Below are positions 5,184 to 51,355 of a DNA stretch of 64,000 nt, piece after piece. This stretch comes from Acidimicrobium ferrooxidans (GTDB lineage: Bacteria; Actinomycetota; Geothermincolia; Fen-727; Anoxymicrobiaceae). The stretch lies in contig DYIU01000003.1 in the NCBI GenBank assembly GCA_020723485.1, positions 394,347 through 458,346 of the forward strand. Direction: 5' to 3'. The first letter of the stretch is position 1. Each line of letters begins with the position of its first letter. Under the pieces are notes generated by a model. That model was given only the letters and a program-made list of their open reading frames with translations, ran no database searches and was not told the DNA's origin. The position numbers and the translations under genes are program-made.

Positions 5184-6031
5184 GGGGTGGACGCGCCGCC
5201 GGGTGGCTCTGGAGCACCAGCGAGCAGCTGGCGGAGAGGCACCGGTGGTACGCGGTCCTCTTAGAGGCTCTGGTCGATTTCCGGCGCAATAAGCTCCGGT
5301 ACCACACCTACTTCTTCACCGTCAACGCCTTCGTGGGGGTGCTCGCGCTGTTTCTCGCCATATCGTCGCTCATGGGCTTCCTGGGGGACTCCGAGTTCAA
5401 GCGGCAGGTGGTGGACGGGATGACGAGCGTGATGCCGGTGCTGCGCGGGAGCAGCTCCGAGGTCCATAACATCTTCGAGACCTTCAAGGGAGCCGCGGGC
5501 ATTGTAAGCTTTCTCTTCCTCATATGGGCGGCCACCAGGATATTCAGCGCGCTCGAGACCGGGTTCAACATCATCTGGGATTCCGAAAAGAGGCGCTACG
5601 CGCACTCTCTGCTGGTAGGCCTCCTGATGACCGCCGTGGTGGGGGCCCTGTTCCTGCTCACTTCACTGATACAGTTCGGGTTCAACAGGCTGCTCGGAGA
5701 GCTCCTCGAGACGAGGAACGTGGGCTACTACCTCGGTGTGGCGGTCGCAAAGCCCATTATCGGCCTGCTCATAAACTTCCTGCTCTTCCTGTTCGTTTAC
5801 CGCGTGGTCACCGGGGTAAGCCCGCCGTTCACCAGGTGCCTGCCCGCGGCCGCGCTGGCGGCGGTCCTCTTCCTCGGCTCCCAGTATGTCCTCAACCTCT
5901 ACTTCGATTACATCTACAAGGTGCCAGCGATATACGGGAGCCTGGCAAGCGGGATAATACTGATACTCTGGATGCAGGCGACGGGCATGATAACCTTCTA
6001 CGGCGCCGAGGTCATCCACGCGCTCGAATAG
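5180..6031 (+). CDS. yihY: YihY/BrkB-family inner membrane protein
   Basis: Six TM segments with the family-typical N-terminal region (RYHTYFFTVNAFVGVLALFLAISS) and a C-terminal GAEVIHALE. The long upstream ORF extension overlaps the amidohydrolase gene and was discarded. The start is probably TTG at 5180, which overlaps the upstream stop codon. Start is approximate. Confidence 0.7.
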   Translation: MRGGRAAGWLWSTSEQLAERHRWYAVLLEALVDFRRNKLRYHTYFFTVNAFVGVLALFLAISSLMGFLGDSEFKRQVVDGMTSVMPVLRGSSSEVHNIFETFKGAAGIVSFLFLIWAATRIFSALETGFNIIWDSEKRRYAHSLLVGLLMTAVVGALFLLTSLIQFGFNRLLGELLETRNVGYYLGVAVAKPIIGLLINFLLFLFVYRVVTGVSPPFTRCLPAAALAAVLFLGSQYVLNLYFDYIYKVPAIYGSLASGIILILWMQATGMITFYGAEVIHALE

Positions 6032-6111
6032 GGTCAGACCATTTTCGTTGCGTCAGCAACATGTTCAACATGTTAAATAGAGTGCCTGACGCAACGAAAA
6101 TGGTCTGACCC
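6031..6111. terminator. Perfect 26-bp-stem palindrome (GGGTCAGACCATTTTCGTTGCGTCAG ... CTGACGCAACGAAAATGGTCTGACCC) with a 29-nt loop. It exactly fills the gap between two convergent stop codons. Likely a bidirectional terminator and/or a palindromic repeat element.
   Basis: Arms at 6031-6056 and 6086-6111. The loop contains the direct repeat CAACATGTT twice. The arms resemble the repeat family at 11230, 33209, 51278 and 59880. Confidence 0.55.
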
Positions 6112-9100
6112 TATTCGCCGATGGTGGAGGTGCCGGCCCCGCGGCTGTTCCAGTACATCGCCTGTTCGGCCACTATCCCCTTGCCGGGGGTCTTGCAGGT
6201 GACCTCGACGGCGGCGCGGCCTGCCGGTACCCTATCCGACATGTCGTAACTCCTGCGGGAATGCGCGGGCACCACCTCGGAGAAGACGACCTCTTCCCCC
6301 TCTCCGGCCAGCGGCATGTATGAGACCTCTATCTCCACATCCTGGTTGTTGGGGTTCTGCACGATGGTCCATGTCTCGTGGCCGTTGTATGTCTCTCCAT
6401 CCGGCAGGTAGAACGTCCCCCTGGTGGAACCGACCCCGATGGAGCAGTGGCCCGCTTCTCCGTTCGGCGTGTCCCCGCCCCACAGCATGACCCTCTCGGC
6501 GACGATCGGCGCGGAGCCGTGGACTTCCATAGACAGGTCGGTGCTCGCGACCGGCTGTATATCGTTCACCCTGACGGTCCTCCTGGAGCAGGCAGGTATC
6601 TGTAACTCCGACCGCCACCTGCCGCCTTCAGATGTCATGTAGGTCACGGTGACATCCGTGTCTGTGGGCTGCGGGTTCTGCACTACCAGGTACGTCGTGA
6701 ATCCCCAGGCCGTGGTCCCTTCCGCCAGGTAGAAGTCCCTGGAGGGAGTGTCCGTGCCGATGGATTCATGCCCTTCCCTGCGGTTGTTTCCGTACATCGT
6801 CCTCTCGGGGACCACCGGCACGTCGCTTTCCACTTTGATGCTCGCGTCCGCCGCGCCTGTGTCACCGGCAACGTCGATGGAAGCCCGCGACATGGCCGGC
6901 ACCTCGTGACGGACCGTTCTCGGGGCACCGTCCTCGAACATATAGGTCACGTCGCAGGTCGCCGGGGCATCGTTGGGATTGAGAATCGTCAACCAGCACT
7001 CGAAGCCCCATGCGGAGGAGCCCTCTGCGAGGTACCAGGCCTTCCCCGGGGTATCGACTCCCACGGACGAATGGCCTTCCGCGGAAGGCGCACCCTCTCC
7101 AGTCCAGATCATCCTGCGTTCAACGGCAAGAGGCCTGCCCTCCGGGCTCTCCACGACGGTCGAGAAATCCATAGCCCCTATGTCGTCCCGGGGGTTGATG
7201 ACAGTCTGGCTCGAGGCCGGCAACTCGAGGTCGGGACGGGTCACCGGACCTGCCGGAGTAATATAGGTCAGCTTCGCCGCGGTCGCAGTTTCGTTGGGAT
7301 TCATTATCGTGAGGTATGTATCGAATCCCCAGGCGGACGACCCCTCGGCAAGGTACCCGGCAGGGTTTCGCACCTCCAGGTTTGCCGAGAACTCACTGGT
7401 GTTTCCCTCCCCGCTCGGGTCGCCTGCAGGGCTCGCGGCCGTGGCGGATATCAGGTCGCCCGCCGACATTCCGGATACCGTCGTGCTGAATTCACCGGAA
7501 CTGGCGGCCGTCACGGTCGCCAGGTAATCGCGACCCTGACCGTGACCGGAAGGGTCCGGTGAGGCCCCGGTGAGATAGAGCTCGACGGCGGCGCCTGGTG
7601 GAGCCGTGCCGCGCACCAGCGCATCCCCGGAGTCGTCTACCACGGCCTGTCCTCCCGAGAACACCGGGAAGTTGTAGCCGCGCTGGGGCTTCTCCGGGTT
7701 GTTGTTGTTCCCATCGTTGGGGGTCACACCGTCACCGAGGATATCGATGCCCAGACCGCCGTTGCAATAGATGGAATTCCCGCTTATCCGGTCGCTGTAA
7801 GAGTCCGGCGTCCAGACGACGACCCCGGCGGCCTGGTTGTCCGCTATCCGGTTGGACGTCACCTGGTTGCCTGTAGAATCAGAGAACGGGGCGAACGATA
7901 CGCCGCTGCCGAGGTTTCCCTCAATCGTGTTGTCGGAGACCACGCAGTCCGTGCCGCCCAGGCTGACGCCCGAGTCGTAGACCTTCGTGCCGAAGTCGAG
8001 CGCGGGCGGCGAGTACCCGGCGGCGACGGGCAGCGAGCCCACCGGGAGGTAGTCGCTCCCGGGCGATGCGGCCTGGAAGGCGAGCTCAAATCCTCCATCC
8101 TGAATCTCCGAGTTGTCGTAGCCGAAGCCGGGCAGCACCATGTCCATGAAGCCCAGGAGCACCTCTTTGCTGGGGAACACCCCGGCGTCGGCGTACCAGG
8201 TCATGTAGAGGTCCCCTGAGCCGTTCCACGCGTGCACGAGCCCCACGTTGAAGCTCCTGACCCCGTCCGCGAACTGGACGAGGGACCCGTCCGAGGGCAC
8301 CGCTGCGAACTCGCCGGCCGAGGGGTCCCCGATGAAGAAGCACCCCGGGAAGCCCATGATGGTCTCGTCGTAGTCGTTGCCGCCGAGCGAACGAGGCGAG
8401 TTGGAGGCCTCGTAGCAGGGCAGGCCGGTGCCGTTGCCGGTGATGGTATTCAGGCTGACGGTGCACTGGGAGACGCCGCTGAGGATGAGGCCCTGGTGGC
8501 GGTTGTACTTGATGTGGTTGCGCCCCTCTTCCGAGCCGCCCACTACCGTATGGCCCGCTTCGTTCTCAATCCTTATGCCGGTGTTCGCGTTGCCGAGCCC
8601 GGAAGCGCCGTCGCGGTTGGTACCGATGTAGTTGCCGAGCACCTCGTTGTACTCAGTCCCGGCATCCGACAGGTACACCCCCGAGTCGCCGTTGGCCGCG
8701 ATCACGTTCCCCGTGCCCGCGCCTTCTCCACCGACGGTGTTGGGATTCGAGGCCGAACCGGCGCCCGCGGTGATGCTCACGCCGCTGGAATCGTTGGGCA
8801 GGGCGGCCGTCGCTGTCGCATCGAGCCCGATCACGTTGCCGGCGACCACGTTGCCGTCGGCGTTGGGCCCGGTGATGGTCACACCGTTGGGATTGCCGCT
8901 GATCAGGTTTCCCTCTCCGGGACCGCCTCCGCCTATTGTGTTGTTCGAACTCGACGAGGCGCCTCCATCGATCCAGACACCATCGCTCGCGTTGCCGAGC
9001 GCGGCCGTGCCAGTCTTGTCGGTGCCTATGAAATTACCGGCTATGTGATTGCCGTCCGCCCGGATGCACACGCCTTCGTGGGCCGCTGCGCTTATGAGGT

Positions 9101-9791
9101 TGCCGTCCTGCGGCCCGCTGCCTCCCACCGTGTTTCCGGATGCGGAGCTCGATATGTTGATATTGTCGCTCGCCCCCGGAGCAGGAGCACCCAGGCCGTC
9201 CGCGTAAGTGCCGATGTAGTTCCCCGCCACCACGTTCCCTGTCGCGCCAGGTCCCGAGATGCCTATCCCGTTGCTCGTGAACCCGTAGATCGCGAGTCCC
9301 TGGACCGTATTTCCTCCGGAGCCGATGTTGATGCCGGTCCCGACGGAGCCCTGCCCGTTTACGGCCACCAGGATGACCCTCGAAGCTATCGGCCCTGGCG
9401 ACGCTCCATCCTGTGTGTAACCGTCAATAGTGGTGTTTCCACCATGCAGCACGGGAAGGGGTGAAAGAAGGAGTATCTCGTAGGGGCCGGCCGGGATGTC
9501 GAACTCGATGACCTTGGTGTCCTCGGGGAGCTCCGCGCTGGCATCGATCATCGCCTGCCGCAACGACCCGACCCCGGAGTCGTTGACCGTGACTACGGTG
9601 AAGGTATGCGTGTCCGCCGCTCCCGCCGGTCCGGCCACCATGAACACCGTGGCCGCGACCATTGCAATGAGCACGAGTGCGAACGCCGCGGGCACGCGGA
9701 CTATTCCGGGATACCGCTCGAATGGGACCTTCGTCTCCGGCCTCCTCCACTCAGACTTATCGGGATGCAGGTCACTGGACAGGAAGACCAC
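6111..9791 (-). CDS. Large secreted or membrane-anchored surface protein. It has an N-terminal signal anchor, a right-handed parallel beta-helix region (PbH1/NosD-like; many GNxIxGNxIG repeats), a Ser/Thr-rich linker, and 4 C-terminal ~110-aa repeats with the pattern YLAEGxxAWGF-T-L-I-NP.
   Basis: 1226-aa ORF. The periodic NxxGNxxxGN beta-helix motifs and the four repeats are visible in the translation. The start codon is GTG at 9791 or a downstream Met. Confidence 0.7.
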   Translation of the reverse strand: MVFLSSDLHPDKSEWRRPETKVPFERYPGIVRVPAAFALVLIAMVAATVFMVAGPAGAADTHTFTVVTVNDSGVGSLRQAMIDASAELPEDTKVIEFDIPAGPYEILLLSPLPVLHGGNTTIDGYTQDGASPGPIASRVILVAVNGQGSVGTGINIGSGGNTVQGLAIYGFTSNGIGISGPGATGNVVAGNYIGTYADGLGAPAPGASDNINISSSASGNTVGGSGPQDGNLISAAAHEGVCIRADGNHIAGNFIGTDKTGTAALGNASDGVWIDGGASSSSNNTIGGGGPGEGNLISGNPNGVTITGPNADGNVVAGNVIGLDATATAALPNDSSGVSITAGAGSASNPNTVGGEGAGTGNVIAANGDSGVYLSDAGTEYNEVLGNYIGTNRDGASGLGNANTGIRIENEAGHTVVGGSEEGRNHIKYNRHQGLILSGVSQCTVSLNTITGNGTGLPCYEASNSPRSLGGNDYDETIMGFPGCFFIGDPSAGEFAAVPSDGSLVQFADGVRSFNVGLVHAWNGSGDLYMTWYADAGVFPSKEVLLGFMDMVLPGFGYDNSEIQDGGFELAFQAASPGSDYLPVGSLPVAAGYSPPALDFGTKVYDSGVSLGGTDCVVSDNTIEGNLGSGVSFAPFSDSTGNQVTSNRIADNQAAGVVVWTPDSYSDRISGNSIYCNGGLGIDILGDGVTPNDGNNNNPEKPQRGYNFPVFSGGQAVVDDSGDALVRGTAPPGAAVELYLTGASPDPSGHGQGRDYLATVTAASSGEFSTTVSGMSAGDLISATAASPAGDPSGEGNTSEFSANLEVRNPAGYLAEGSSAWGFDTYLTIMNPNETATAAKLTYITPAGPVTRPDLELPASSQTVINPRDDIGAMDFSTVVESPEGRPLAVERRMIWTGEGAPSAEGHSSVGVDTPGKAWYLAEGSSAWGFECWLTILNPNDAPATCDVTYMFEDGAPRTVRHEVPAMSRASIDVAGDTGAADASIKVESDVPVVPERTMYGNNRREGHESIGTDTPSRDFYLAEGTTAWGFTTYLVVQNPQPTDTDVTVTYMTSEGGRWRSELQIPACSRRTVRVNDIQPVASTDLSMEVHGSAPIVAERVMLWGGDTPNGEAGHCSIGVGSTRGTFYLPDGETYNGHETWTIVQNPNNQDVEIEVSYMPLAGEGEEVVFSEVVPAHSRRSYDMSDRVPAGRAAVEVTCKTPGKGIVAEQAMYWNSRGAGTSTIGE

Positions 9792-10644: not shown

Positions 10645-11061
10645 CTACTCGACGACCTTGTCGTACTGGGTGCCCTCCTGCGGGTTGGTGACAGCTGCGA
10701 CTTTGCCCATGGATATACCGACGTACCAGGTCTCCTCGGCGCCGCCGTCGTCGAAGGTCAGCACCACCACACTGCGGTCATCCTCGGCGTCCTCGACTTC
10801 GTAGGTGCCCTTCCTGGACGAGCCCCATGCGTCGCCCTCGAACGTCCCGTCCTTCGTGAAGACGATCGAGCCGGGCCGACCCATGTTGTCCTTGTACGTG
10901 CCGACGATACCGGTCTCCACGTCCTCGTCGAGGGAGACGACCTCGGTCTCATGCTCGCCCTGGGTTTCGTCTTCCGTTGTCTTGCCGCCGCCGCACCCCA
11001 CAACGAGCAGCAGCCCGAGGACGAGGACCCCCAGGCAAAGGACTGCTACATACCTCTTCAT
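10645..11061 (-). CDS. Small lipoprotein (lipobox LVVGC), function unknown
   Basis: Signal peptide followed by a Cys. AAGGGGG Shine-Dalgarno site. Confidence 0.55.
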   Translation of the reverse strand: MKRYVAVLCLGVLVLGLLLVVGCGGGKTTEDETQGEHETEVVSLDEDVETGIVGTYKDNMGRPGSIVFTKDGTFEGDAWGSSRKGTYEVEDAEDDRSVVVLTFDDGGAEETWYVGISMGKVAAVTNPQEGTQYDKVVE

Positions 11062-11229
11062 CGTACGGTACCCCCTTGTTCCGGACCCCCACTCTCTGGA
11101 GGACGTTGTAGAGGCCGCTGCCGGTCTCCACGGCGCCCGCCAGAAATCCTAGCACATCGAGGCGGCCAGGGGCCTGGCCGCCGTCCGGCGGCCGCCCGCT
11201 CCTGAACCATCTATACTATTGTGAGAACT

Positions 11230-11259
11230 GCAAAATCGGGGTCAGGTCACTTTGTTGCA
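11230..11259. repeat. Copy A of the quasi-palindromic repeat GCAAAATCGGGGTCAGGTCA(C/T)TTTGTTGCA. It sits in the 5' leader and ends 20 nt before the ATG of the amino-acid-binding-protein gene.
   Basis: This is 29/30 identical to the copy at 59880-59909 and to the reverse complement of 51278-51306. Confidence 0.6.
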
Positions 11260-11278
11260 TTTTTCAGAGGAGCGCCGC

Positions 11279-12049
11279 ATGAAAAGGGCAGTATTGATGA
11301 GGTCGAGTGCAGTAATGGCCGTCTTGCTCGCGCTTGCCGCGCTGCCTGCCCTCGTGGGCTGCGGCGGCGGGCCCGCGACCGTTCAGGATGGAAGACTCCT
11401 GCTGATGGGCAACGAGAACATAGCCTTCCTGGAGATCGCCAATGGAGAGCCCGGCGGGTTCTCAGCCGAGCTCGTGACGGAGATGGCCGGACGCATGGGG
11501 CTCGAGCTCGAGGTGACCCTGGAGCCGTTCGCCGCGCTCTTCGCCAGTCTGGAAGCCGGGGAGTGCGACATCGCCATGTCGGCGATCACCATCACGCCCG
11601 AGAGGATGGAGCAGGTCGACTTCTCCGACCCTTATTTCGATTCGGGCCAGGCCATCCTGGTGCCGGAGGACTCAGCCGTCTCCGGGGAAGCGGACCTCGC
11701 CGGGAAGCGGGTGGGCGTCCTCGAGGGCTCCACGAACCAGGAGACAGCCGAGAGCATACCCGGTATCGCCGAGATAGTGCGCTTCCGGGAGAAGCCCCCG
11801 ATGTTCGAGGCCCTCGTTGCAGGCGGGCTCGACGCGGTCATCAGCGACACGCCGTTCGCTCAGTTCAACGCGAAGGCCACCGGGAAGACAAAGATCGCAA
11901 AGGTGCTGACCCGCAGTGAGAAGTACGGGATAGCGGTGAAGAAGGGCAACTCCGAGCTGCTGCGGGAACTGAACGACGAGCTGAGGAAGCTCAAAGAGGA
12001 CGGGACGTACGACCGGCTGTACGAGAAGTACTTCGGCGACAGGGTCTAG
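11279..12049 (+). CDS. Amino-acid ABC transporter substrate-binding lipoprotein (SBP_bac_3 family)
   Basis: Lipobox ALVGCGGG. Family-typical DIAMSAITIT, DFSDPYF, GKRVGVLEGST. GAGGAG Shine-Dalgarno site 7 nt upstream of the ATG at 11279. Confidence 0.8.
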   Translation: MKRAVLMRSSAVMAVLLALAALPALVGCGGGPATVQDGRLLLMGNENIAFLEIANGEPGGFSAELVTEMAGRMGLELEVTLEPFAALFASLEAGECDIAMSAITITPERMEQVDFSDPYFDSGQAILVPEDSAVSGEADLAGKRVGVLEGSTNQETAESIPGIAEIVRFREKPPMFEALVAGGLDAVISDTPFAQFNAKATGKTKIAKVLTRSEKYGIAVKKGNSELLRELNDELRKLKEDGTYDRLYEKYFGDRV

Positions 12050-16408: not shown

Positions 16409-16698
16409 AGCATCCCCCATCTGGGGTATATTCGGGTTGTCCCCGAATGCGGATTATTCCTTTTATACCGCGGAATGAGATATCCCCCGTATGGGGGTTA
16501 CGCATGCAAGCGGCGACGGTCAATAATTCATGCAACAGGTCCAGCGGCACATTCCACACCGCCCTGGGCACTGTGGGGTTCAAAATCGAAAGGGAAGCTT
16601 TGACCCGCGGGTTTAAACTGGTCACCTGGCCCGCGGCGAGCGAGTGGTGAAACCGGCCCGATCATCGAGGATCGGGTTTTTTATTGGGGGAGGAGAAC
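16409..16698 (+). promoter_or_regulatory. 290-nt structured non-coding leader ending in an intrinsic terminator (CCCGATC-atcgag-GATCGGG + T6 at 16657-16682), immediately upstream of the RBS and ATG of the SdrD-like gene. Candidate attenuator or riboswitch leader, or an sRNA.
   Basis: Multiple hairpins (ATTCGGG...CCCGAAT, CCCCCgtaTGGGGG, CCGCGGG-18nt-CCCGCGG). The terminator T-tract ends 8 nt before the GGAGG site. Confidence 0.4.
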
Positions 16699-18156
16699 AT
16701 GAGACGAGGAACCGTTTTCGCAGTAGTCGCCCTCATGGCACTCGCATTCGTCATGACAACGGCGGGCGCGCTGGTCGTAGCCGAGGACCCCGCCCCGACC
16801 GCGGTCGATACGAACGTGGGCGTCGTGCAGGCGCTCGTCACGGTCGACGGAGTCATGACCGACGGCATCAACGTCACCCTTTACAGCCTCAACGACGACG
16901 GCACCAGGAACCTCGTCGGCACCATGGCGAGCACCGGGGGGGCATACATGGTCTGGCCGTGGGGGACCTCCTACGCGCCGCCCGAGTCAGGCGGCTGGCA
17001 GAACGGCTGGGTCGGATGGAACGCCCTGCCCACCACGCACGCAGACAAGGACTATGTCGACTACGAAGTCGAGGTCGAGGTGCCCGCCGGTCTCATCTCG
17101 GTTAACGGGACCGTGCAGGGCGGGCTGGAAGTCGGGCGCCTGTGGGCCCCCAGCACTGAACACCCCTTCTGCTGGGGAAGGCAGTTCGAGTTCAAGCTCG
17201 AGAGCAGGCCCGTGGAGTACAGGCTGGACGGTTACAAGTTCAAGGACATGAACGAGAACGGCGTCATGGACGCGGACGAGGTCGGCATCCCCGGTGTCAC
17301 CATAGACCTGGACACCGACAAGGCCTCCGCCCAGACCGACGCCGGCGGTTACTTCAGTTTCACCGTTGCGGCGGGAGAACACACGGTGGCGGTCGACGAG
17401 TCGACGGCGCCCGGTTATTACCCCACCACCCCGACCTCGGTCGTCACCAGCGAGGGCAAAACGGTCTACTTCGGCAACGCGCCTTACGGCTCCATATGCG
17501 GCAAGAAGTACAACGACAAGAACAAGAACGGAAAGCCCGACTGCGGCGAGCCCACGCTGGGCGGCGTCACCATCAAGCTGAGCGGCAAGACCAACGTGGG
17601 CGGCGAAGAGGTGAACAAAGAGACGACCACGGCCACTGACGGCAGTTACTGCTTCACAGGGCTGAAGGCCGGCACGTACATCATCACCGAAGTGGTTCCC
17701 TCCGGCTGGTACGCGACCGGTCCGAACCCGAAGACCGTCACGCTTCTGCCGGGGCAGAACGTGACCGGCGTCGATTTCTTCAACGCTCAGGGCTGCGTGC
17801 CGTACGGTTCGATATACGGCAAGAAGTACAACGACAAGAACAAGAACGGAAGGCGAGACTGCTGGGAGCCCACGGTCTCCGGGGTCAAGGTCAAGCTCAG
17901 CGGAGTCATCGACGGCCAGCTCGTGAACAAGGAGACCACGACCTCGTGGGACGGGAGCTACTCGTTCACAGGGCTGAAGGCCGGCACGTACACGATAACG
18001 GAGGTCGTTCCCTCAGGCTGGCAGGCTACAGGCCTCGTGTCGGTTGAGGTGACGCTCCTTCCGGGACAGAAGGTGACCGGAGTCGATTTCTTCAACGTGA
18101 GGACTTCGACGTGCGGATGGACCCTGGACTGGTGCCTCTTCAGCTGCTGGTTTTAG
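16699..18156 (+). CDS. Secreted adhesin-like protein with tandem SdrD-B/CnaB-type repeats (DxNxNGxxD calcium-binding motif) and a Cys/Trp-rich C-terminal tail
   Basis: Signal peptide MRRGTVFAVVALMALAFVMTTAGA. Two near-identical ~100-aa repeats (GSICGKKYNDKNKNGKPDCGEPTLGGV...TEVVPSGW). Ends TCGWTLDWCLFSCWF. Confidence 0.7.
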   Translation: MRRGTVFAVVALMALAFVMTTAGALVVAEDPAPTAVDTNVGVVQALVTVDGVMTDGINVTLYSLNDDGTRNLVGTMASTGGAYMVWPWGTSYAPPESGGWQNGWVGWNALPTTHADKDYVDYEVEVEVPAGLISVNGTVQGGLEVGRLWAPSTEHPFCWGRQFEFKLESRPVEYRLDGYKFKDMNENGVMDADEVGIPGVTIDLDTDKASAQTDAGGYFSFTVAAGEHTVAVDESTAPGYYPTTPTSVVTSEGKTVYFGNAPYGSICGKKYNDKNKNGKPDCGEPTLGGVTIKLSGKTNVGGEEVNKETTTATDGSYCFTGLKAGTYIITEVVPSGWYATGPNPKTVTLLPGQNVTGVDFFNAQGCVPYGSIYGKKYNDKNKNGRRDCWEPTVSGVKVKLSGVIDGQLVNKETTTSWDGSYSFTGLKAGTYTITEVVPSGWQATGLVSVEVTLLPGQKVTGVDFFNVRTSTCGWTLDWCLFSCWF

Positions 18157-20026: not shown

Positions 20027-21427
20027 ATGCTCTGGACCATCAAGGCCGCGAGTGACTTCGAATACGGGTACAACGCCGCCAGGGGGCGCTCTCTCCTCTT
20101 CAGGACGGCGATCGACCGCGCCGTCGAAGCCGTCGGCAGACGCGGCACCGACCGTGAGGCCCAGGCCCGGAAAGCGAAGCGGCACGCGGCGCTGCTCGCG
20201 GAGCGCTACCCGGCCCAGCTGGAGCGGCTCTCCGGCCTCGCCCGCGCGACCGGCCTCGAGCCCCTCGAAGCGACGGCGGGTGAGCTCGCGCTCGGCTCGC
20301 TCCTCAGCACCGGCTGCACCAACTTCGCCGCCGTGCCGCCCGCCACGTCGGACGGCAACCCGTACGTCTCCTGGAACTTCGACCTCTCTCCACTTTTCCG
20401 CCTACTCATGGGCCGCACTCCGCTCTACGTCCGTGACATTGCGGGGAAGAAGCCGTACGTGTGCCTCGGCCTGCCGGTGCTCTTCGGGATAGGGGTGATG
20501 AACGCGGACGGCCTCTGCTCCTGCGTCAACTCCGTATCGGCGACGGACGGCGGGGAGGGCCTGATGTTCTTCGAGCTGAACAACCTGGCCATGGAGACGC
20601 AGTCGACCGTGGACGGGGCGGCCGGCGTCTGGCGTGACAACCCGCGCGAGGTTCTCCCGGGCGTGGCCCTCTCCATGATAATGAACTCGAACAGCATCTT
20701 CGCCGACATGAGGGGAGACGCCGCTGTGATAGAGCACTCCCACAACCACATGGCCGTCGAGAAGGCGCGCGACCACGGCGGCGTCCTCGCCTCGGCAAAC
20801 CACCACCAGTTCCTCGACCGTGCGCTCTCCGGCGGGACCGACCCGTCTGTCGAGCCGATGATAACCGGGTCGTACGCGCGGCTGGCCCGGATGTGGGAGC
20901 TGCTGGAGCTCCTTCGCGGGAAGATGGACAGGGAAACGGCCCGGATAATAGTCACAGACCACGAGACCAACTACTCCACGCTCGCCGAGTTCGGCATCAC
21001 GCGGACGCGGTACGAGGAACGCATCGACGACGCCACAATATGCATGCACCCATGGAACTTCTGGCGCCACCTGCGCCGGTTGGAGCTGCTCGAGGCGGTG
21101 CTCGAGGCCAACATGCCGACCCTTAACTCGATACTCATGGACCCGGCGAGGTGCACAGTCTATTTCACCAGGGGCAATCCCTGCCGCAACCAGTACGTGC
21201 CGGTCTGGGTCGGGGACGCTCTTCGCATGGAGTGGGCCGACCGGGCGCGCGGGGAGCTGGACTACAACCCTGAACTGGCAGCCAGCACCTGGTCCCGCCG
21301 CCTCGACTGGTTCCGCCGGCCCGAATCGACCGTGGTGAGCGATGTCCTGAGGTATGTAGCCCTGACGTTCTTCAGGATTGCGGAGCGCCTGACCCCCGCC
21401 AGCGTCATAAACCGGGGTCACGTCTGA
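20027..21427 (+). CDS. Peptidase C45 / acyl-CoA:6-APA acyltransferase-like Ntn-hydrolase
   Basis: STGCTNFAA nucleophile-Cys motif typical of the C45/AAT family. TATAAT -10 sequence at about 19944 and a GGGAGGG Shine-Dalgarno site. Confidence 0.6.
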   Translation: MLWTIKAASDFEYGYNAARGRSLLFRTAIDRAVEAVGRRGTDREAQARKAKRHAALLAERYPAQLERLSGLARATGLEPLEATAGELALGSLLSTGCTNFAAVPPATSDGNPYVSWNFDLSPLFRLLMGRTPLYVRDIAGKKPYVCLGLPVLFGIGVMNADGLCSCVNSVSATDGGEGLMFFELNNLAMETQSTVDGAAGVWRDNPREVLPGVALSMIMNSNSIFADMRGDAAVIEHSHNHMAVEKARDHGGVLASANHHQFLDRALSGGTDPSVEPMITGSYARLARMWELLELLRGKMDRETARIIVTDHETNYSTLAEFGITRTRYEERIDDATICMHPWNFWRHLRRLELLEAVLEANMPTLNSILMDPARCTVYFTRGNPCRNQYVPVWVGDALRMEWADRARGELDYNPELAASTWSRRLDWFRRPESTVVSDVLRYVALTFFRIAERLTPASVINRGHV

Positions 21428-21500
21428 ACTTATGACTCAGGCTTGCGGTGCGGAGGCAGGAGCGGTCACAAAATCAGACGTGACCCCGGTATATACCGGT

Positions 21501-23738: not shown

Positions 23739-26369
23739 TCAGGGGTCGAAGCCTATGGAGTCGTGGGCGCACTGGCGATAACACGTGGCGGTGTCCCAGT
23801 ACATCGCCCGTTCCGCGATGACCGGCTGGTCCGAGGCGACCCTGGTGGAGACGCTGAACTCGTTGGGAAGGCAGTCAGCCACGTTCAGTGTCTTCCGGGT
23901 GTGCGGGGTAAGCGTGAACTCCTGCCCGGCCACCTCTACGCCTCTGGGGGTCTGATAGTAGAGCCTCACGTTGGCAGCCGTATCTCCCGGGTTCTGCACC
24001 AGCACCCACGTCTCGAAGCATCCCTGCTGGCTCGCCCCGGTGCAACCCTCGGCGAGGTACCAGGCGCCGCAGGGCGCAGTGACGCCCACGGAATCGGTGG
24101 CCGACTGGCGGTAGGAGCCCGGGGTGCCTGTCCAGTACATCGAGCGCTCGGCGATCACGGGCTCGTCCGAATCCACCCGCGTGGAGACGCTGAACTCGTT
24201 GGGCAGAAAATCGGCGACGTTGCGTGTCTCGCGCGAGTGGGCGCCCACGGTGAGTTCGTGGCCCTTCACCTCGGTGGTCGGCGTCTGGTAGTAGAGCTGG
24301 ACATGCGCCGGGCTGCTGCCGGGGTTCTGCACGAGGACCCAGGTCTCGAACGAGCCCTGCTCATTGGTGCCGGTGCTTCCTTCGGCGAGGTACCACGCGG
24401 TGCAGGGCGCCGTGACCCCTATGGAGTCGTGGGCCGCCGCCCTGTACGCCCCCGGCGCGCACCAGTACATCGCCCTCTCAGCTATGACTGGCTGGTCGGA
24501 TGTCACCTTCGTGGACACGCTGAACTGGTTGGGCACTACATCGGCCACGTTCCGGGTCTCTCTGGCGTGCGGCTTCACCGTGAACTGGTGCCCTTCGACC
24601 TGCCCGTCCGGGGTCTGGTAGTAGTACTTCACATTGGCGGGCTCGTCTCCCGGGTTCTGAACCAAGACCCACGTCTCGAACCACCCGAATTCGTTGGCTC
24701 CCGTGCTGCCCTCGGCGAGGTACCAGGTCTTCGCCGGGGAGGTCACCCCTATCGAGTCGGTGGCGGACTGACGGAATGCGCCGGGCGCGTCCCAGTACAT
24801 GGAGCGCTCTGCGATTATAGGTCTGTTCGACACCACCCGGGTGGAGACGCTCCACTCACCGGGGACGACGTCGGCCACGCTCCTTGTATCCCGCGAGTGA
24901 GGGGCCAGCGTCATCTGCTGGCCGGGGACTTCACCGGAAGGGGTCTGGTAGAACAGCTGGACGTCCGCGGACTCGTCCCCCGGGTTCTGCACCAGTATCC
25001 AAGTCTCGAAGTAACCGAACTCGTTCACCCCCGTGCTGCCCTCGGCCAGGTACCAGGTGAATGTCGCGGGTGTGTACTTGGCCACGAAAGTGGTGTAGTC
25101 GCCGTCGGGGTCGCTGTTGGATATCGACATGCCGACGGTGTAGACGTTCCCCTTGTCGTCGACGTTGGTGGCGTGCGCCTCATCGGAATAACCGGCCCTG
25201 TTCAGCACCTGCGGGAATCCCGGGGACATCGCCCCGTTCGGAGCGTACCTGTTGGTGTGCACGCTCGTGTCCGCCTGGCGCGTGAACGAGGCCGCGATGT
25301 TGCCCTCGCTGTCCACGGCGCCGTGCCAGGTGTCGGGCGGATGGTAGCCTACCATGCCGGCGGACGAGTCCGTCTTCGGCCACCCGGCGACCTGGGCCCC
25401 GGCTTTCGTGTAACGGTTGACCAGGAGCTTCCCGGAGTCATAGGGCGGGGCGAGCGCCGCGCCCTGGGTGAGCCCCACGAGGCAGTACTGGCCGTTCGAG
25501 TCCTGGGTGACCGATGAGTACTCGTCGTAGAGCGCGCCGCCGGAGGTCCAGGTCTTGGGCCACCCGGCGGCAAGGTTTCCATCCGTGTCCATCTTGAAGA
25601 GGGCCGCGTCCCTGTCCCCTGCGCCCGGGGTCCCGTACCCGGCCGCCACAAGGTTGCCGTCCGAGTCCTGGATTATGTCGTACCCCACCGTGTTGGTGCC
25701 GGACACCTGGTATGTCCTCGGCCAGCCCGAGACGATGGTGCCTGAGGCCGTGTATTTCACCACCAGCAGCGAGTAAACCGTGCCCGCCGCGTTGCGGGCA
25801 TATCCACAGGCGACGATGTTGCCGTCCGAGTCTACGATTGCTGCGGTCCCGTACGAATGGTCGCTCACGTGCATGTACTTCGGCCAACCGGGGAGAGGAT
25901 TGCCCTCGGAATCGAGCCTCCATACGGCCAGGTTCCAGACGTTTCCCGTCGTTATCATGTAGCCGCCGATGGTCATGTCGCCGTTCGGCTCAACGAAGAC
26001 GTCCTGCCCCTCGTTCCAGCGCATGCCGGCCTGGGCGTAGAACCTGGGCCAACCCGGGAGGAGCTTACCGTCCTGCGTGTACCTGCCGACGATGAGCTCG
26101 CCGGGGTCACTACCCACGTTATCGCCGTCAGACCCGACCGCCACCACCGTGCCGTCCGGGCATATCGCCACGTTGTGGTACTCGGGGCAGCGATCAGGCC
26201 TGGGGTCGGCGTAGTAGGAAGTCCAGGGTGCGTTCGAGCCGCCCCCCGGCGCGACCGAGGCCGGCTGCGTGCCGCCCGCAAGGGCCGGCGCGATCCCGAT
26301 GGAGACACAGCAGGCGGAAAGCAGGATAGTGACGGCAAGAGCAAGGAACTGCCGCGTGTTCGCCCACAT
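23739..26369 (-). CDS. Secreted surface protein: signal peptide, an N-terminal DUF5122-like beta-propeller region, and 4-5 C-terminal ~112-aa repeats (WYLAEGSTGxNEFGxFETWVLVQNPG ... VADxxPxxFSVSTxVxSDxPxIAERxMYW ... HDSIGV)
   Basis: The repeats are nearly in register across about 560 aa. Start taken at the ATG at 26369 (MWANTRQFLALAVTILLSA, a signal peptide); the ORF track extends to 26441. Confidence 0.7.
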   Translation of the reverse strand: MWANTRQFLALAVTILLSACCVSIGIAPALAGGTQPASVAPGGGSNAPWTSYYADPRPDRCPEYHNVAICPDGTVVAVGSDGDNVGSDPGELIVGRYTQDGKLLPGWPRFYAQAGMRWNEGQDVFVEPNGDMTIGGYMITTGNVWNLAVWRLDSEGNPLPGWPKYMHVSDHSYGTAAIVDSDGNIVACGYARNAAGTVYSLLVVKYTASGTIVSGWPRTYQVSGTNTVGYDIIQDSDGNLVAAGYGTPGAGDRDAALFKMDTDGNLAAGWPKTWTSGGALYDEYSSVTQDSNGQYCLVGLTQGAALAPPYDSGKLLVNRYTKAGAQVAGWPKTDSSAGMVGYHPPDTWHGAVDSEGNIAASFTRQADTSVHTNRYAPNGAMSPGFPQVLNRAGYSDEAHATNVDDKGNVYTVGMSISNSDPDGDYTTFVAKYTPATFTWYLAEGSTGVNEFGYFETWILVQNPGDESADVQLFYQTPSGEVPGQQMTLAPHSRDTRSVADVVPGEWSVSTRVVSNRPIIAERSMYWDAPGAFRQSATDSIGVTSPAKTWYLAEGSTGANEFGWFETWVLVQNPGDEPANVKYYYQTPDGQVEGHQFTVKPHARETRNVADVVPNQFSVSTKVTSDQPVIAERAMYWCAPGAYRAAAHDSIGVTAPCTAWYLAEGSTGTNEQGSFETWVLVQNPGSSPAHVQLYYQTPTTEVKGHELTVGAHSRETRNVADFLPNEFSVSTRVDSDEPVIAERSMYWTGTPGSYRQSATDSVGVTAPCGAWYLAEGCTGASQQGCFETWVLVQNPGDTAANVRLYYQTPRGVEVAGQEFTLTPHTRKTLNVADCLPNEFSVSTRVASDQPVIAERAMYWDTATCYRQCAHDSIGFDP

Positions 26370-26461
26370 GAGAATCCCTCCCCGTGCAACAACCGCAATG
26401 CAAGGTTCTCCAGGGGGAATCATATATGAACCGGGCGGCAAGTTGCACTGGGGCCGGGGCC

Positions 26462-33208: not shown

Positions 33209-33236
33209 GCAAAATGGGACCTGACCCCTTGTTGCA
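33209..33236. repeat. Copy D of the repeat family (GCAAAATGGGACCTGACCCCTTGTTGCA). The central GGTCAGGTC core is inverted relative to copies A and B. It lies about 145 nt upstream of the cysK start.
   Basis: The flanks GCAAAAT/TTGTTGCA are shared with 11230 and 59880; the core is the reverse complement. Confidence 0.5.
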
Positions 33237-33315
33237 AGAAGCGATAGCCGGGGGCACCGAGCAATGCCTCCGGCTATCCACGCATCCTTGAAGGGGGTAC
33301 AGTCGTTCTCGAGCT

Positions 33316-36240
33316 TCACCTCCTTCCCGGCGATGCGCTTTCGCGCGCCGCCGTTCCCGCTTGCCCTGTGGTTCCAACGCCGGCTTGACGGTTGCCTGTG
33401 ATCAATTCGTCCCTGCCCTGGCCCACGGTCGTCACCTGCCCGCTCCCTGCGGAGCCGAGCGCGGCGGCGCCGTCCGCAACGGTGTTTCCGATCGAACTCG
33501 CTGCCCGGGGCTCCGGGCTCCTGCCCATGGTCCCGTCGTCCTTCATCGCCGAGCTGATCTGCGCGAACCAGACGAAGAGGAGGGCGAAGACGACCACCAT
33601 GACCACCGGTGCGATCCTGGACACCCAGTTCGTCCTCCCCGGCTTGAAGCGCCTCAGAAGCAGCGAGTTCGAGACGACGGAGATCGAGCTGAGCACCATG
33701 GCCAGGCCCGCCAGTTCCGGCCTCAGCGCGATGCCCAGGGCGGCGAACACGCCCGCCGCGATGGGGATTCCCATAACGTTGTAGAAGAGGGCGAAGAACA
33801 TGTTCTGACGGACCTTGCCGAACGTCTCCTTCGAAAGCTGCTTCGCGGTGACGACGTCCCTCAGGTCGTCTTTGATTATCACGATGCCGCCGGTCTCCAT
33901 CGCCACGTCCGTGCCTGAGCCCATCGCCACCCCGAGGTCGGCCTGGGCGAGCGCGGGCGCGTCGTTGATGCCGTCACCCACCATCGCGACCCTCTCTCCA
34001 CTCGCCTGCAGCTTCTTCACCTCGCTCGCCTTGTCCTCAGGCAGGACCTCGGCCAGGACGTTCCCGATTCCCAGTTCGCCGGCGATCGCCCCGGCGGTGC
34101 GCCGGTTGTCCCCGGTGATCATGTAGATATCGAGGCCCATGTCCTCTAGCTCCGAGATCGCCTCGCGGGACGTATCCTTGACGGTGTCGGCGACCGCCAC
34201 GGCCCCCAGCACCTTCTCGCTCGAGGAGAGTATCATCACGGTTTTTCCCTGCTCTTCGAGCCCCGAAACCGTTGAGTCGATCCCTTCCAGCTCCAGGCCG
34301 ACGACCTCGGTGGCGAGCTTCCGGTTGCCGAAGAAATAACGGCTTCCTTCCACCTGGCCCTGCACCCCCAGGCCGGGGACCGCCCTGAAATCCGAGACGT
34401 CGCGGACCGGGATCGAACGGCCGAGCGCGTGGCCGTATACCGCCTCGGCCAGCGGGTGCTCGGAGGATTTTTCCAGGGATGCCGATATGCGCAGGACGTC
34501 ACTCTCGCTGAACCCGTTGAACGTCAGGACATCCGTCACCTCGGGCTCGCCGTTGGTCAGCGTACCGGTCTTGTCGAAGACGATGGACGTCACCTTCTCA
34601 GCCGACTCCAGCGGCTCGCCTCCCTTGACGAGTATGCCGTACTCCGCGCCCTTGCCGGTGCCGACCATTATGGCGGTGGGGGTGGCAAGTCCCAGAGCGC
34701 ACGGGCAGGCGATGACGATAACGGCGGTGAACGCCATCAGCGAGTAGGTCAGGGACGCGCTGAGGAATACGAACCAGACGGTGAAGGTCAACGCGGCGAT
34801 TGCCAGGACCGCGGGCACGAAGTACTTCGATACCCTGTCCGCGAAGCCCTGGATCGGCGCCTTGGAGCCCTGTGCGTCCTCGATGAGGCGGATTATCTGG
34901 GCGAGCATGGTCTCGGAGCCGACGCGGGTCGCCTCGAACTCGAAGCTCCCGGTCTTGTTGATGGTGACGCCGATCACCGTGTCGCCCACGTTCTTCTCGA
35001 CGGGGATGCTCTCGCCCGTGACCATCGACTCGTCCACAGCCGAGGAACCCCGGGTGATGACTCCGTCGACCGGGACCTTCTCCCCGGGACGGACCAGGAT
35101 GATGTCGCCGTGGACGACGTCCTCCACCGGTATGTCATCGGTGACGCCGTCCCTTATGACGCGCGCCGTCTTCGCCTGCAGGCCCATGAGCTTTTTGATG
35201 GCCTCGGACGTCTTGCCCTTCGCCCGCGCCTCCAGCCACTTGCCGAGCAGCACGAAAGTGATCAGGAACGCCGCCGTCTCGAAGTACATGTTGGGGACCT
35301 TGGCGCCGTCCATGCCGATCAGGGTCGAGTTTGACACGGCGTAGGATATGTATACCGCCAGGCTGTAGAAGTAGGCCGTCGATGTCCCGATCGCGATGAG
35401 GCTGTCCATGTTGAAGGTCCTCATGCGCAGGCTCGACCACGCGCCCTTGTAGAACCCCGCGCCCGCGATGAACTGCACGGGGGTGGCCAGTATGAGGGAG
35501 ACGATTGCGAAGTACGGGGGCAGGGACCCGGCGCCCGGCAGCCATTTGAAGAAATCGAGGAGCATGAAATAGAGCATGGGAAGGCTCAATACCAGGCTGA
35601 ACAGGAACCTGTTCCTGTAGCTCCTGATCTCCCTCTCTCGCCTGTCCGACTCCTGCTCGCTCTCCCTCTCGCCGACGACCGCCGCCCTGTAACCGGCCTT
35701 CCTGACCGCCTCGACGAGGTCTTCAGGCGATACCGTCACGGGATCGTAGTCCACGTACGCCTTCTCGGCGGCGAAGTTCACCGAGGCCTGCCTCACGCCC
35801 TGAGTCTTGTTGAGCGCACGTTCGATGACGGCAGCGCACGAGGTGCAGTGCATCCCTGAGAGTGAAAGCCCGACCCTGCCCGCGGAGCTCCCGGCCTCCA
35901 TGCCGCCGGTTTCCCCGCGGTGGCCGCCGCTCCCCTCCCCGGTCGAATCATGTTCGCCGGGGCCGGGGAGCGGTACGCCGGTGTCGGCTTCGGGGGCGCC
36001 GGGGCCTGCGCCCTCATCGCTGTCGTCGATGAGCTCCGCCCGGTAACCCTCGGCTTCTATCAGGTTGAGGACCATCTGCACCGGGATGATGTCGACCTCC
36101 GCCACAACGGTGCCAGTACCGCTCTCGTAATCGAACTCGGCCGTGCGTACACCGTCCGCGCAAAGGAGGGCATCCTCGATGAGCCGCGCGCAGGAGTTGC
36201 AGTGCATGTCTTCCACCTTGAGCCTGAGTACTCTCTCCAT
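33316..36240 (-). CDS. copA: Copper-translocating P1B-type ATPase with two N-terminal HMA domains
   Basis: MHCNSCA and MHCTSCA metal-binding sites. CPC in TM6. [21 protein letters not shown] Shine-Dalgarno site. Confidence 0.9.
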
Positions 36241-36362
36241 AACAGCCTCCCGGGTTCTTATACCTATACCTATGGTAGGGGTACCAGACAGGAAAGTCAA
36301 GTGTTTTGGTAGGTTATTTCACCGGGAATATTGAACGCTCTGGAGGCCCTGTCTGTGCGGCT

Positions 36363-37941: not shown

Positions 37942-38214
37942 CTACTTGTTCGACAGCTTGGTCACCTGGAGTATCTCCTGGATCATCTCCTGCTTGCGCT
38001 TGTCGCTCGCCGACGACATCGCCTTCTTGAAGCAGTCGTTCAGGTGCCCTTCCATCAGCATCTGGTTCGCTGACTTGAGAAGGCCGATTACGGCGAGGTC
38101 CTGCTGCATTATGTCGACGCAGTACTCGTCGTTCTCTATCATCTTGATGATCTTCCCGAGAAGGCTCTGCGCTTTCTTGAAGTTGATGAGGGTCTTTTCC
38201 TTCTGGACGTTCAA
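37942..38214 (-). CDS. csoR: CsoR/RcnR-family metal-sensing transcriptional repressor
   Basis: 90-aa protein with conserved Cys and His positions (...DEYCVD...GHLNDC). First gene of the copper operon. Confidence 0.75.
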   Translation of the reverse strand: MNVQKEKTLINFKKAQSLLGKIIKMIENDEYCVDIMQQDLAVIGLLKSANQMLMEGHLNDCFKKAMSSASDKRKQEMIQEILQVTKLSNK

Positions 38215-50604: not shown

Positions 50605-50714
50605 CGCAGCACCGATTCACCTTGAAAACCACCTGCGGATAGTACTATGATACCCGCGGGTCAAAACAACGGTCTGATGTGGGCGGACCCGGCCCCGAGC
50701 TCAAGGAGGCAGAG

Positions 50715-51236
50715 ATGGCATGTGAATGCGCCGAGTGCACCGAACACGGAGGGCCGAACCCGATAATAATGACGTTCCGGGTCATGGTCATCGTGGCCCA
50801 GATGGTCCTGGGAGCCTACGGGATGCTCAAGGAACGCTCGTATAAAGCCCTCTGGGCGTGGCTGGGTGCGCTCGCCCTGTTCTGGACAATACCGCGCTAT
50901 CTCATCTGCGCCCGGTGCCCCGGGTACGGGCAGAAATGCTACAGCCTGTACCTGGGCAAGATAACCTCGATGTATATGCTGAAGGTGGAGGGACACGAGC
51001 AGGAGCACCCTTCGAGCCTGGCGATCGGGCTGGAAGTGCTCTCACTCGCAACCATCAGCAACGCCCCGGCTATCGGGCTGCGCGGGGACAAGAAGCTCCT
51101 GCGGCTCTACATGCTCCTGTCGACGATAACCCTCTGGAGCCAGTTCCTCCACGCCTGCAGGCACTGCGCCACATACGGCGAGGGCTGGAAGAAGGACTGC
51201 CCGTCAGCCCAGACCTACCGCAGGCTGTTCGGGTAA
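50715..51236 (+). CDS. Cys-rich membrane protein (N-terminal CECAEC, later CARCPGYGQKC and CRHC), function unknown
   Basis: ATG at 50715 with a strong AAGGAGG Shine-Dalgarno site. 3-4 TM helices. Confidence 0.45.
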   Translation: MACECAECTEHGGPNPIIMTFRVMVIVAQMVLGAYGMLKERSYKALWAWLGALALFWTIPRYLICARCPGYGQKCYSLYLGKITSMYMLKVEGHEQEHPSSLAIGLEVLSLATISNAPAIGLRGDKKLLRLYMLLSTITLWSQFLHACRHCATYGEGWKKDCPSAQTYRRLFG

Positions 51237-51277
51237 GCAGGTCAGGCTTTAACGCTTGTGCCGGATGAGTTGAAAAC

Positions 51278-51306
51278 GCAACAAAATGACCTGACCCCGA
51301 TTTTGC
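51278..51306. repeat. Copy C of the repeat family (reverse orientation: GCAACAAAATGACCTGACCCCGATTTTGC), between the Cys-rich membrane protein gene and the sulfatase-like gene
   Basis: Reverse complement is 29/30 identical to 59880-59909. There is an additional partial core CAGGTCAGG at 51238-51246. Confidence 0.6.
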
Positions 51307-51355
51307 GTTCTGTGCTAGGATTCAGCTACCTTTGAGGCAATCCAGGGAGGCGCGG

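Follow-up and report, generated by a model that had tools for sequence, protein, structure and literature searches.

The stretch of DNA described here, 64,000 nucleotides of an actinobacterial assembly (GCA_020723485.1, contig DYIU01000003.1) and hereafter called the window, carries four copies, A to D, of a short repeat that we name F1, and two long inverted repeats of related families. The gene map of the window is based on the GC content of third codon positions (GC3), and the functions of neighbouring genes were taken from Pfam scans. Copy A is located in a divergent intergenic region, between an open reading frame (ORF) at 10645..11061 (-) and the SBP_bac_3 gene at 11279..12049 (+), which encodes a family-3 solute-binding protein. 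Copy B is inside trpE, copy C precedes a sulfatase-like ORF, and copy D lies between the gene of a P-type ATPase and cysK. A first-pass annotation of the window had offered two readings of these repeats, a miniature mobile element or a shared operator or RNA hairpin of amino-acid and sulfur genes. Here, we compared the copies with each other and with those found in related genomes and in metagenomes. F1 is probably one family of lineage-specific, short, non-coding interspersed repeats of the kind that comprises repetitive extragenic palindromic sequences (REPs), REP doublets forming hairpins (REPINs) and miniature inverted-repeat transposable elements (MITEs).

The F1 unit and its copies in the window

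The window was searched for the 30-mer GCAAAATCGGGGTCAGGTCATTTTGTTGCA with at most one mismatch, using 100 dinucleotide-preserving shuffles as the control. Matches were found at 11230-11259 (+), 51277-51306 (-) and 59880-59909 (+), and in none of the 100 shuffles. With three matches against none expected, a chance origin of the three copies is excluded, and the near-identity claimed for them by the first-pass annotation holds. The similarity around copies A, C and B reaches further than the 30-mer, to about 33-39 nt, from an AAC on the 5' side through to a T-run on the 3' side. The features are collected in Table 1; their density in the window is four F1 copies and two sister doublets in 64 kb.

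Table 1 Repeat elements of the window, with positions counted from its first letter.
Feature	Position	Strand	Remarks
F1 copy A, singlet	11226..11264	+	AACTGCAAAATCGGGGTCAGGTCACTTTGTTGCATTTTT; nhmmer E=2.6e-14
F1 copy B, singlet, antisense to trpE	59877..59909	+	codons 16-27 (LQQNDLTPILRL) of the trpE coding sequence
F1 copy C, singlet or half of a decayed doublet	51272..51309	-	nhmmer E=4.4e-13
F1 copy D, diverged	33209..33238	-	TGCAACAAGGGGTCAGGTCCCATTTTGCC; nhmmer E=0.033
Possible decayed partner arm of copy C, uncertain	51237..51262	+	GCAGGTCAGGCTTTAACGCTTG; suggested by position and ~60% resemblance
Sister-family inverted doublet, arm CGAATAGGGTCAGACCATTTTCGTTGCGTCAG	6025..6117	.	perfect 32-nt arms 6025-6056 and 6086-6117; 29-nt spacer
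Sister-family inverted doublet, arm ATAWACCGGGGTCACGTCTGAxxTTxTGAC	21407..21494	.	30-nt arms, 87% complementary; 28-nt spacer

The F1 unit, about 36-38 nt long, has the consensus aaYGCAACAYY-GGGGTCAGGTCAC-TTTGTTGCR-TTTT, with 20 invariant columns. This consensus was derived from 33 copies oriented on the core, three from the window and 30 from other genomes; about 40 copies were examined overall across the window and related loci. The unit can be described as composed of two symmetric arms, YGCAACA and TGTTGCR, with the invariant and asymmetric core GGGGTCAGGTCAC between them and a short T-run after them. Its description in the first-pass annotation as quasi-palindromic is right as regards the sequence: over nine arm pairs in the 33 aligned copies, 81.5% of the cells are paired, compared with 31-54% in slid controls. 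It does not extend to folding. As RNA, single units reach -3 to -10 kcal/mol, no better than their shuffles (z -2.1 to +0.3, not significant), and variation in the arms breaks pairs without compensation (covariation score 0.071, shuffled mean 0.080). The Y and R positions beside the arms also vary independently, with 11 T/A, 5 C/G, 4 T/G and 10 C/A combinations. One pairing change is suggestive, GCAAAA/TTTTGC in the related locus L028 for GCAACA/TGTTGC elsewhere, and it is a single event. A hairpin of RNA or of single-stranded DNA in single units was accordingly rejected, the z-scores being not significant and covariation missing.

The interval from the end of copy A to the ATG at 11279 is 19 nt, close to the 20 nt given earlier. 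Copy C is located between two co-directional genes, that at 50679..51236 (+) and the sulfatase-like ORF (+), about 50 nt upstream of the latter as had been described, and is reversed relative to both. A partial core had also been reported at 51238-51246. Eight of its nine bases do match, and its position fits, without proving, a decayed partner arm of copy C; this candidate arm starts directly after the TAA stop codon at 51234-51236.

Copy D had been taken for an element whose core is flipped between conserved flanks. The exact core GGGGTCAGGTC is present at 33209-33236 on the minus strand, where the full sequence reads TGCAACAA-GGGGTCAGGTC-CCATTTTGCC, so that the whole element is reverse-oriented and diverged. 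Its flanks seem conserved because the arms of the element are symmetric, and the invertible or asymmetric recognition core suggested earlier arose from this misread orientation. Copy D follows the P-type ATPase gene, the stop of which is at 33316, and is on the upstream side of the predicted cysK promoter, the best candidate for which is TTGACA-18-TATCAT at 33158->33129 (11 of 12 consensus positions). It therefore probably lies outside the cysK leader, in which it had been placed. A T-run comes directly after the head of copy D, which itself gives a mini-hairpin of 5 bp. Scans for sigma-70 promoter and terminator consensus sequences were empty at the singlets A and C and gave only this mini-hairpin with its T-run at copy D, and such signals were rejected for the singlets.

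The window also contains a 28-nt inverted repeat pair about 2 kb apart, at 36256-36283 and 38232-38259 (TACCCCTACCAT.GGTATAGGT..., 89% complementary). One repeat adjoins the start of the copper-type P-type ATPase gene (33316..36300, -) and its partner adjoins the gene of a CsoR-family repressor (37942..38214, -); the two look like CsoR operators.

In trpE, the ATG at 59955 is preceded by a strong Shine-Dalgarno sequence, GGAGGAAG (59964), and the database protein P0001, a 100% identical TrpE of 537 amino acids, has the same start; copy B thus corresponds to codons 16-27 of a 537-amino-acid coding sequence (CDS). In this orientation, it occupies the sole stop-free frame of three. The peptide that it encodes was found in none of 119 TrpE homologues, and 51 residues separate the TrpE start from the conserved D-x-ETP motif, compared with mostly 40-45 in the homologues. 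On this sequence comparison, copy B is a lineage-specific in-frame insertion in the variable N-terminal extension of TrpE, and the first-pass placement of this copy is confirmed. In L026 and L027, which are closest to the window by trpE, 30 kb are free of F1 copies, and the motif was not found in the relatives' trpE upstream regions. Upstream of trpE, the window has a classical trp attenuator (60174-59953, -), composed of a promoter (TTGACA at 60174 and TATACT at 60151), a leader peptide MKDISGKAKLHSFWWGPR* at 60136->60080 with two adjacent Trp codons, and a GC-rich terminator hairpin with T8 at 60042->60002. The same FWWG leader is found upstream of trpE in the relatives L026, L027 and L028.

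Distribution, sister families and turnover

Outside the window, the exact 22-mer of F1 has a single match among 185,579 species genomes, in a metagenome-assembled genome (MAG) of Candidatus Geothermincolia (L001). A metagenome scan added 20 short contigs from four samples (L002-L021) with 30 copies. F1 also occurs at the syntenic loci L022 and L023, and an F1-like variant, AACGCAAAATGGGGTCAAACCACTTTTTGCATTTT, in L028. The sequence that contigs L002-L021 have in common with each other or with the window is the element alone, with the exception of one orthologous pair (L011/L016). Six of the 20 contigs terminate within 60 nt of the core, compared with 1.6 expected (p=0.004); this clustering of contig ends is the signature of a multi-copy repeat, and it means that the elements fragment metagenome assemblies. 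Viral contigs were scanned and gave no matches, on which ground a phage origin was rejected. The superfamily to which F1 belongs is, as far as these sequences reach, confined to a clade of uncultivated, Geothermincolia-like Actinomycetota.

F1 units are arranged as singlets, as two tandems (in L002 and in L010) and as inverted, tail-to-tail doublets of 77-100 bp. There are seven of these F1 doublets in L003, L005, L006, L011, L014, L015 and L018; complete ones are 80-86% identical to each other, part of the spacer included. L023 carries four doublets in 20.7 kb. A clustered regularly interspaced short palindromic repeat (CRISPR) array was rejected, since spacers are missing between the tandem units and an array would not contain inverted doublets.

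An inventory of every GGGGTCA or GGGTCAG in the ~160 kb of the window and related loci, in which the syntenic intergenic regions were also read, revealed that several families open with the same head, GGGGTCAG(G/A)(T/C)C, after which their tails diverge. Besides F1 itself (window and L001-L023), with a variant ending in ...CAYTTTTGTGCA in L023, these are a second family, GGGGTCAGGTCTTGAATCGTGAATTT (L023 and L024), a third, GGGTCAGACCATTTTCGTTGCGTCAG (window 6025-6117), a fourth, GGGGTCACGTCTGATTTTGTGAC (window 21407-21494), a fifth, GGGGTCAGAYCTGATTTCATYAGTG (L001, L014 and L017), and a sixth, GGGGTCAGACACCCTGACATGAATT (L017 and L021). In doublets, the head is invariably located at the outer end of each arm. 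Over all families, 17 doublets of 77-100 bp were compared; their inverted arms are 22-36 nt long, and their spacers vary in length and sequence.

Both window doublets fill gaps between convergent genes. The doublet at 6025-6117, which the first-pass annotation had recognised as a palindrome at 6031-6111 built from two inverted motif-like arms, is larger than was stated there. It occupies the entire gap between its two genes and gives both of them their last codon and stop (GAA TAG). The doublet at 21407-21494 was not in that annotation; the stop codon TGA of the plus-strand gene (21425-21427) is inside its left arm. The folding energies of doublets range from -50 to -65 kcal/mol and their z-scores from -6 to -13; the values are -65 kcal/mol and -13 for the first window doublet, and -50 and -6.3 for the second. 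Rfam 15 has nothing that overlaps the elements of the window at gathering score, and at E<=1 the doublets match only generic models of miRNA-precursor hairpins. A riboswitch or other known RNA was rejected, as no Rfam family matched.

Two further regions were noted. The segment 1854-2015 of the window, 162 bp long, has inverted ends of 22 nt (CCCGCAGGTTTGAATCACAATA / TACTGTGATTCAAACCTGCGGG, 95%) on either side of an AT-rich centre of 118 nt. It is located within a convergent intergenic region of 488 nt, with two 28-nt direct repeats alongside (2114-2141 and 2230-2257). Its arm resembles the GGGGTCAGGTCTTGAATCGTGAAT family of L023 and L024, and the element may be distantly related to the superfamily. 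In the rpsP leader (L023 8805-8900, L024 8790-8880), there are two units that contain the head, GGGGTCAGRCCCCTTTCATTGCA and AACGCAACAARAGGGGTCRGACCC. The GGGGTCAGRCCCCTTTCATTGCA unit, upstream of rpsP, has a 5-bp hairpin and then a T-rich tract. Both units are kept in L023 and L024, unlike the remaining element sites.

Variants within the family indicate how the copies are related. All three window copies A, B and C have GCAAAAT, whereas the 30 copies from other genomes have GCAACAY; the window copies were therefore derived from a genome-specific master or homogenised within the genome. In L023, two doublets 1.1 kb apart have a common variant tail, TTTTGTGCA, and the same spacer. Such genome-specific diagnostic variants imply copying within a genome, and show that the elements multiply there.

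The comparison of orthologous loci for presence or absence, which the first-pass annotation had recommended, reveals that occupancy differs between L022, L023 and L024. Over the 20 kb in which L023 and L024 are syntenic, they share ~86% identity, and the alignment is interrupted precisely where the elements are. Downstream of ftsY, there is an F1 doublet in L023 and an unrelated repeat in L024. The trmD-rplS gap contains F1 doublets in L018 and L023, a doublet of another family in L024, and a CTGACCCC remnant alone in L022. Different families or a half element are also present at two other sites of L023 and L024; a fourth site has a doublet in L023 and half a doublet in L024, and L022 is without most of these elements. 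Together, these sites show that the elements turn over at orthologous positions faster than the flanking genes diverge. The repeat of L024 that stands at the site of an L023 F1 doublet belongs to a second, unrelated interspersed repeat (CCCATCGTGGAT...ACGATGGGTGCCCACCAC...), which is intergenic and was seen at L023 18585-18921 and L024 4282-4379.

With the exception of copy B, all of the ~40 copies examined are intergenic or overlap gene ends. Many begin at a stop codon, the TAA of which overlaps the 5' AA of the element. Relative to the adjacent transcription unit, nine singlets are forward and seven reverse (n=16, p=0.8). The flanking genes include those of a thiolase-like protein, a PyrR-type phosphoribosyltransferase, a CobQ-type amidotransferase, an ADP-forming acyl-CoA synthetase and a ketopantoate reductase, and furthermore of a LytR-CpsA-Psr protein, a short-chain dehydrogenase (SDR), an aldehyde dehydrogenase, a B12-binding protein and TrmD; the genes beside ~30 further copies have no functional relation. 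In L002, two tandem F1 units are inserted between a PyrR attenuator and the start codon. The PyrR binding-site RNA (RF00515, 1024-1121, -) scores 50.3 bits there, just below the gathering score of 54, and is located upstream of a PyrR-like gene.

Other features of the window were observed away from the repeats. A full-length Cyclic di-GMP-II riboswitch aptamer (RF01786, 61 bits, gathering score 53.5) is found at 16584-16667 (+), directly upstream of a 490-amino-acid ORF (16684..18156). Four tandem coding repeats of ~330 nt (23796-25120) are within an ORF of 900 amino acids (23739..26441, -). Related modules are present at 6350-7400 in an ORF of 1226 amino acids (6111..9791, -), which has a DUF5719 match, and at 62140-63400 in the ORF 62119..63978 (-). 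The ORFs with these modules form a family of large repeat-domain proteins.

Origin of the repeats and rival explanations

The mobile-element reading of the first-pass annotation, which included an in-frame variant like the Rickettsia palindromic elements (RPEs), is supported by the occurrence of F1 in multiple copies, mostly between genes, in both orientations and as singlets, doublets and tandems. Further support comes from its lineage-specific proliferation, from the differing orthologous sites and from the in-frame insertion in trpE. As to how such repeats spread, we can only infer both the mobilising enzyme and its mechanism. An enzyme that recognises the conserved head or the hairpin would copy the elements in trans. 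None of the 17 doublets has a direct target-site duplication of at least 2 nt; once the inverted repeat is extended outward, the flanks are alike over only 0-1 nt. Such flanks speak against a DDE transposon that makes a direct duplication, and they exclude the 5-bp duplication of the Tn3 type. They fit the single-strand HUH transposition that PMC3337134 proposes for REPINs. The most likely agent would therefore be a single-strand transposase of the HUH/Y1 type, similar to a REP-associated tyrosine transposase (RAYT), acting on the folded doublet. Singlets would be half-elements or an independently copied unit, and effects on the host, such as hairpins at 3' ends or bidirectional termination between convergent genes, would be secondary.

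Several observations weigh against F1 as a repeat of this kind. Pfam scans of 20 window ORFs and of 10 element-flanking ORFs (L001-L018) did not find a transposase, and none is listed in the gene tables of L022-L029; the related loci covered amount to ~160 kb, and the clade DNA overall to ~220 kb. At the orthologous sites, there is no pair of filled and empty sites with alignable flanks, only whole intergenic regions that are replaced or absent. The most conserved part of the unit is its asymmetric centre and not a stem, unlike classical REPs, the 5' tetranucleotide of GTAG type is not in the F1 consensus, and singlets are not decaying in the window genome. Finally, the core is identical over 22 nt across genomes in which TrpE is at most 69% identical. 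This unusual conservation could come from a host function rather than from selfish spread. The very high conservation of the head between diverged genomes shows that it is under constraint, which may be imposed either by an enzyme that co-evolves with it or by a function in the host. It is conceivable, although we would not expect it, that the head GGGGTCAG(GTC), common to at least six families with different tails and unchanged between genomes that have otherwise diverged deeply, is the recognition site of a domesticated single-copy enzyme or of a clade-specific nucleic-acid-binding system of the host. If it were an enzyme, the repeats would be part of a partnership like that of REPIN and RAYT, or would point to a transposase or nuclease of a new kind among the Actinomycetota. 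In either version, they would be a vertically inherited, co-evolving sequence population and not ordinary transposon debris.

The doublets might instead be classical MITEs with terminal inverted repeats (TIRs) at or near GGGGTCAG, derived from a DDE insertion sequence (IS) with a TA target of IS630/Tc1 type or a GGGG end of Tn3 type, the singlets being solo ends. Doublets of 77-100 bp with long inverted arms and a conserved head at the outer ends have the form of MITEs, and a patchy distribution in the clade fits the horizontal spread of a parent IS. In two sister families, a symmetric TA is found outside the head, as TA/GGGTCAG...CTGACCC/TA (6029-6113) and as TA/CATGGGG...CCCCATG/TA (L001), and these families are compatible with a TA flank. 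Our flank test would not reveal a TA duplication, which is palindromic and would be taken up in the inverted repeat. In F1, by contrast, T and then A stand at the flank in only about 9 of the 33 copies, mostly as TAA stops, and conservation reaches about 10 nt beyond the head (YGCAACAYY). The arms of 22-36 nt correspond to the TIRs of MITEs, but the direct duplication is missing from all 17 doublets, highly conserved singlets predominate in the window, and a full-length IS with these ends was not seen in the DNA examined. We consider this origin unlikely. Tn3-type ends in particular, which share the GGGGTC start, were rejected for the wrong arm length and for having no TAAG and no 5-bp duplication, and an IS26/IS6-type end, to which TGTTGCA bears a resemblance, has no supporting feature. 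A somewhat less probable explanation, and one we also regard as doubtful, is that the elements serve the host, as intergenic hairpins that end or protect transcripts (bidirectional terminators or stabilisers of 3' ends) or as sites of an abundant DNA-binding protein, with the head GGGGTCAG as the functional signal. Besides the 22-nt identity of the core, this would account for the occupation of the same intergenic sites in several genomes by different families, for the very stable doublets in convergent gaps, and for the 5-bp head hairpins with T-runs at copy D and at the copies upstream of rpsP in L023 and L024. REPs are described as co-opted in this way (PMC3337134, PMC3479197). But singlets stand 9:7 relative to transcription and have no significant fold or covariation, and copies are located in a divergent promoter region (A), in a CDS (B) and in a 5' leader between the PyrR site and pyrR (L002). 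The organism also has canonical terminators of its own, such as that of the trp attenuator, and the close relatives L022, L026 and L027 are without elements at the same sites.

Two other explanations are very improbable and were rejected. The operator or RNA hairpin of one amino-acid and sulfur regulon (trpE, cysK, amino-acid uptake and sulfatase), the other reading of the first-pass annotation, was suggested by the neighbours of the four window copies, and for several copies elsewhere (L001, L002, L007 and L012) a start codon follows 20-30 nt downstream. It gave way to the functionally unrelated neighbours of the other copies, to the near-even orientation and to the unstructured singlets. Where linked genes and a fixed distance to promoters would be expected, many copies are found after stop codons or in convergent gaps, one is in a CDS, and copy D is upstream of the predicted cysK promoter. 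Copies B and C run antisense to the gene beside them. The trp operon is equipped with an attenuator of its own, and the region upstream of trpE in relatives lacks the motif. A DNA uptake sequence or uptake signal sequence (DUS/USS), or another genome-wide signal, would likewise have a short invariant core in both orientations and inverted pairs downstream of genes. Yet GGGGTCAG occurs eight times in the window on both strands, compared with ~4.5 expected from base composition, and the excess consists of the four F1 copies. With the F1 copies removed, there is no excess within the coding DNA of the window, the density is about 1 per 5-15 kb and not about 1 per kb, and the conserved unit is at least 36 nt long with family-specific tails. 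A sigma-54 promoter was considered for the GG-N10-GC spacing and the TTGCA, and was rejected for its poor -24 element, for the random orientation and because doublets would fire into each other.

Comparison with known repeat families

A literature search for the F1 core returned unrelated eukaryotic matches only and none in a bacterial context, and nothing on repeats was found in the literature that mentions Geothermincolia. Apparently, this superfamily has so far been undescribed, as a set of REP- and REPIN-like repeats in an uncultivated actinobacterial class. For annotation, elements of 36-100 bp explain features of this lineage that could be misread as regulatory signals: odd 'operators', perfect palindromes in convergent gaps, altered C-termini and stop codons, and the N-terminal insertion in TrpE. 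If an enzyme recognising the GGGGTCAG head were found, this would be a second, independent system for the maintenance of short-repeat populations in bacterial genomes.

Correia elements (NEMIS) of Neisseria and other IS630-type MITEs are about 100-150 bp long, duplicate their TA target and have a recognisable transposase family. Long terminal inverted repeats, intergenic positions that are often near gene ends, and possible transcript hairpins are common to them and to the elements described here. F1 differs by having no consistent TA duplication, and 36-nt singlets are common in it. The RPEs of Rickettsia, also about 100-150 bp, are frequently intragenic. They resemble copy B in that a palindromic repeat is tolerated in frame within a CDS, copy B adding 12 codons to the variable TrpE N-terminus, but copy B is the sole intragenic case among the ~40 copies examined here, and it uses the one frame of three that has no stop. 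The bacterial interspersed mosaic elements (BIMEs) of enterobacteria are mosaic clusters of REPs in which repeat types alternate in orientation. Similar arrangements are found where a GGGGTCAGATCTGATTTCAT unit abuts an F1 unit in L014 and L017 and in the tandem units of L002 and L010, while the sequences are unrelated.

The REPs of E. coli and Stenotrophomonas have a conserved 5' tetranucleotide of GT[A/G]G type beside the stem. This tetranucleotide has no counterpart in the F1 unit, in which the invariant part is GGGGTCAG and an asymmetric 13-nt centre, rather than a palindromic stem, is best conserved. The maintained stem pairing of a single REP is not seen in F1 either, as its folding and covariation stay at the level of shuffles. 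Furthermore, window singlets are as conserved as doublets, whereas those of P. fluorescens SBW25 have the appearance of decaying remnants. Neither the scanned ORFs of the window nor the gene tables of L022-L029 yielded a RAYT gene. F1 is also hosted by an actinobacterial lineage, whereas the RAYT Groups 2 and 3 that are associated with REPs were analysed in Escherichia and Pseudomonas (PMC5581495). A REPIN, as defined in PMC3337134, consists of two inverted REPs with an unconserved spacer and forms a hairpin of ~89 bp, and this architecture of inverted units, poorly conserved spacer and hairpin is that of our 17 doublets. The likeness to the REP/REPIN-RAYT systems of E. coli and P. fluorescens SBW25 (Bertels and Rainey, PMC3116915, PMC3337134) extends to short extragenic repeats with several families per genome. 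It also includes singlets, tandem or mosaic clusters and hairpin doublets of ~80-100 bp with unconserved spacer sequence, as well as A/T runs at the ends, the lack of target duplication and genome-specific sequence populations. The elements are filed among the short interspersed palindromic repeats of bacteria, where they are most similar to REPINs, and membership in a RAYT system is not claimed for them. The finding is real and useful for annotation, yet it is an instance of a familiar phenomenon.

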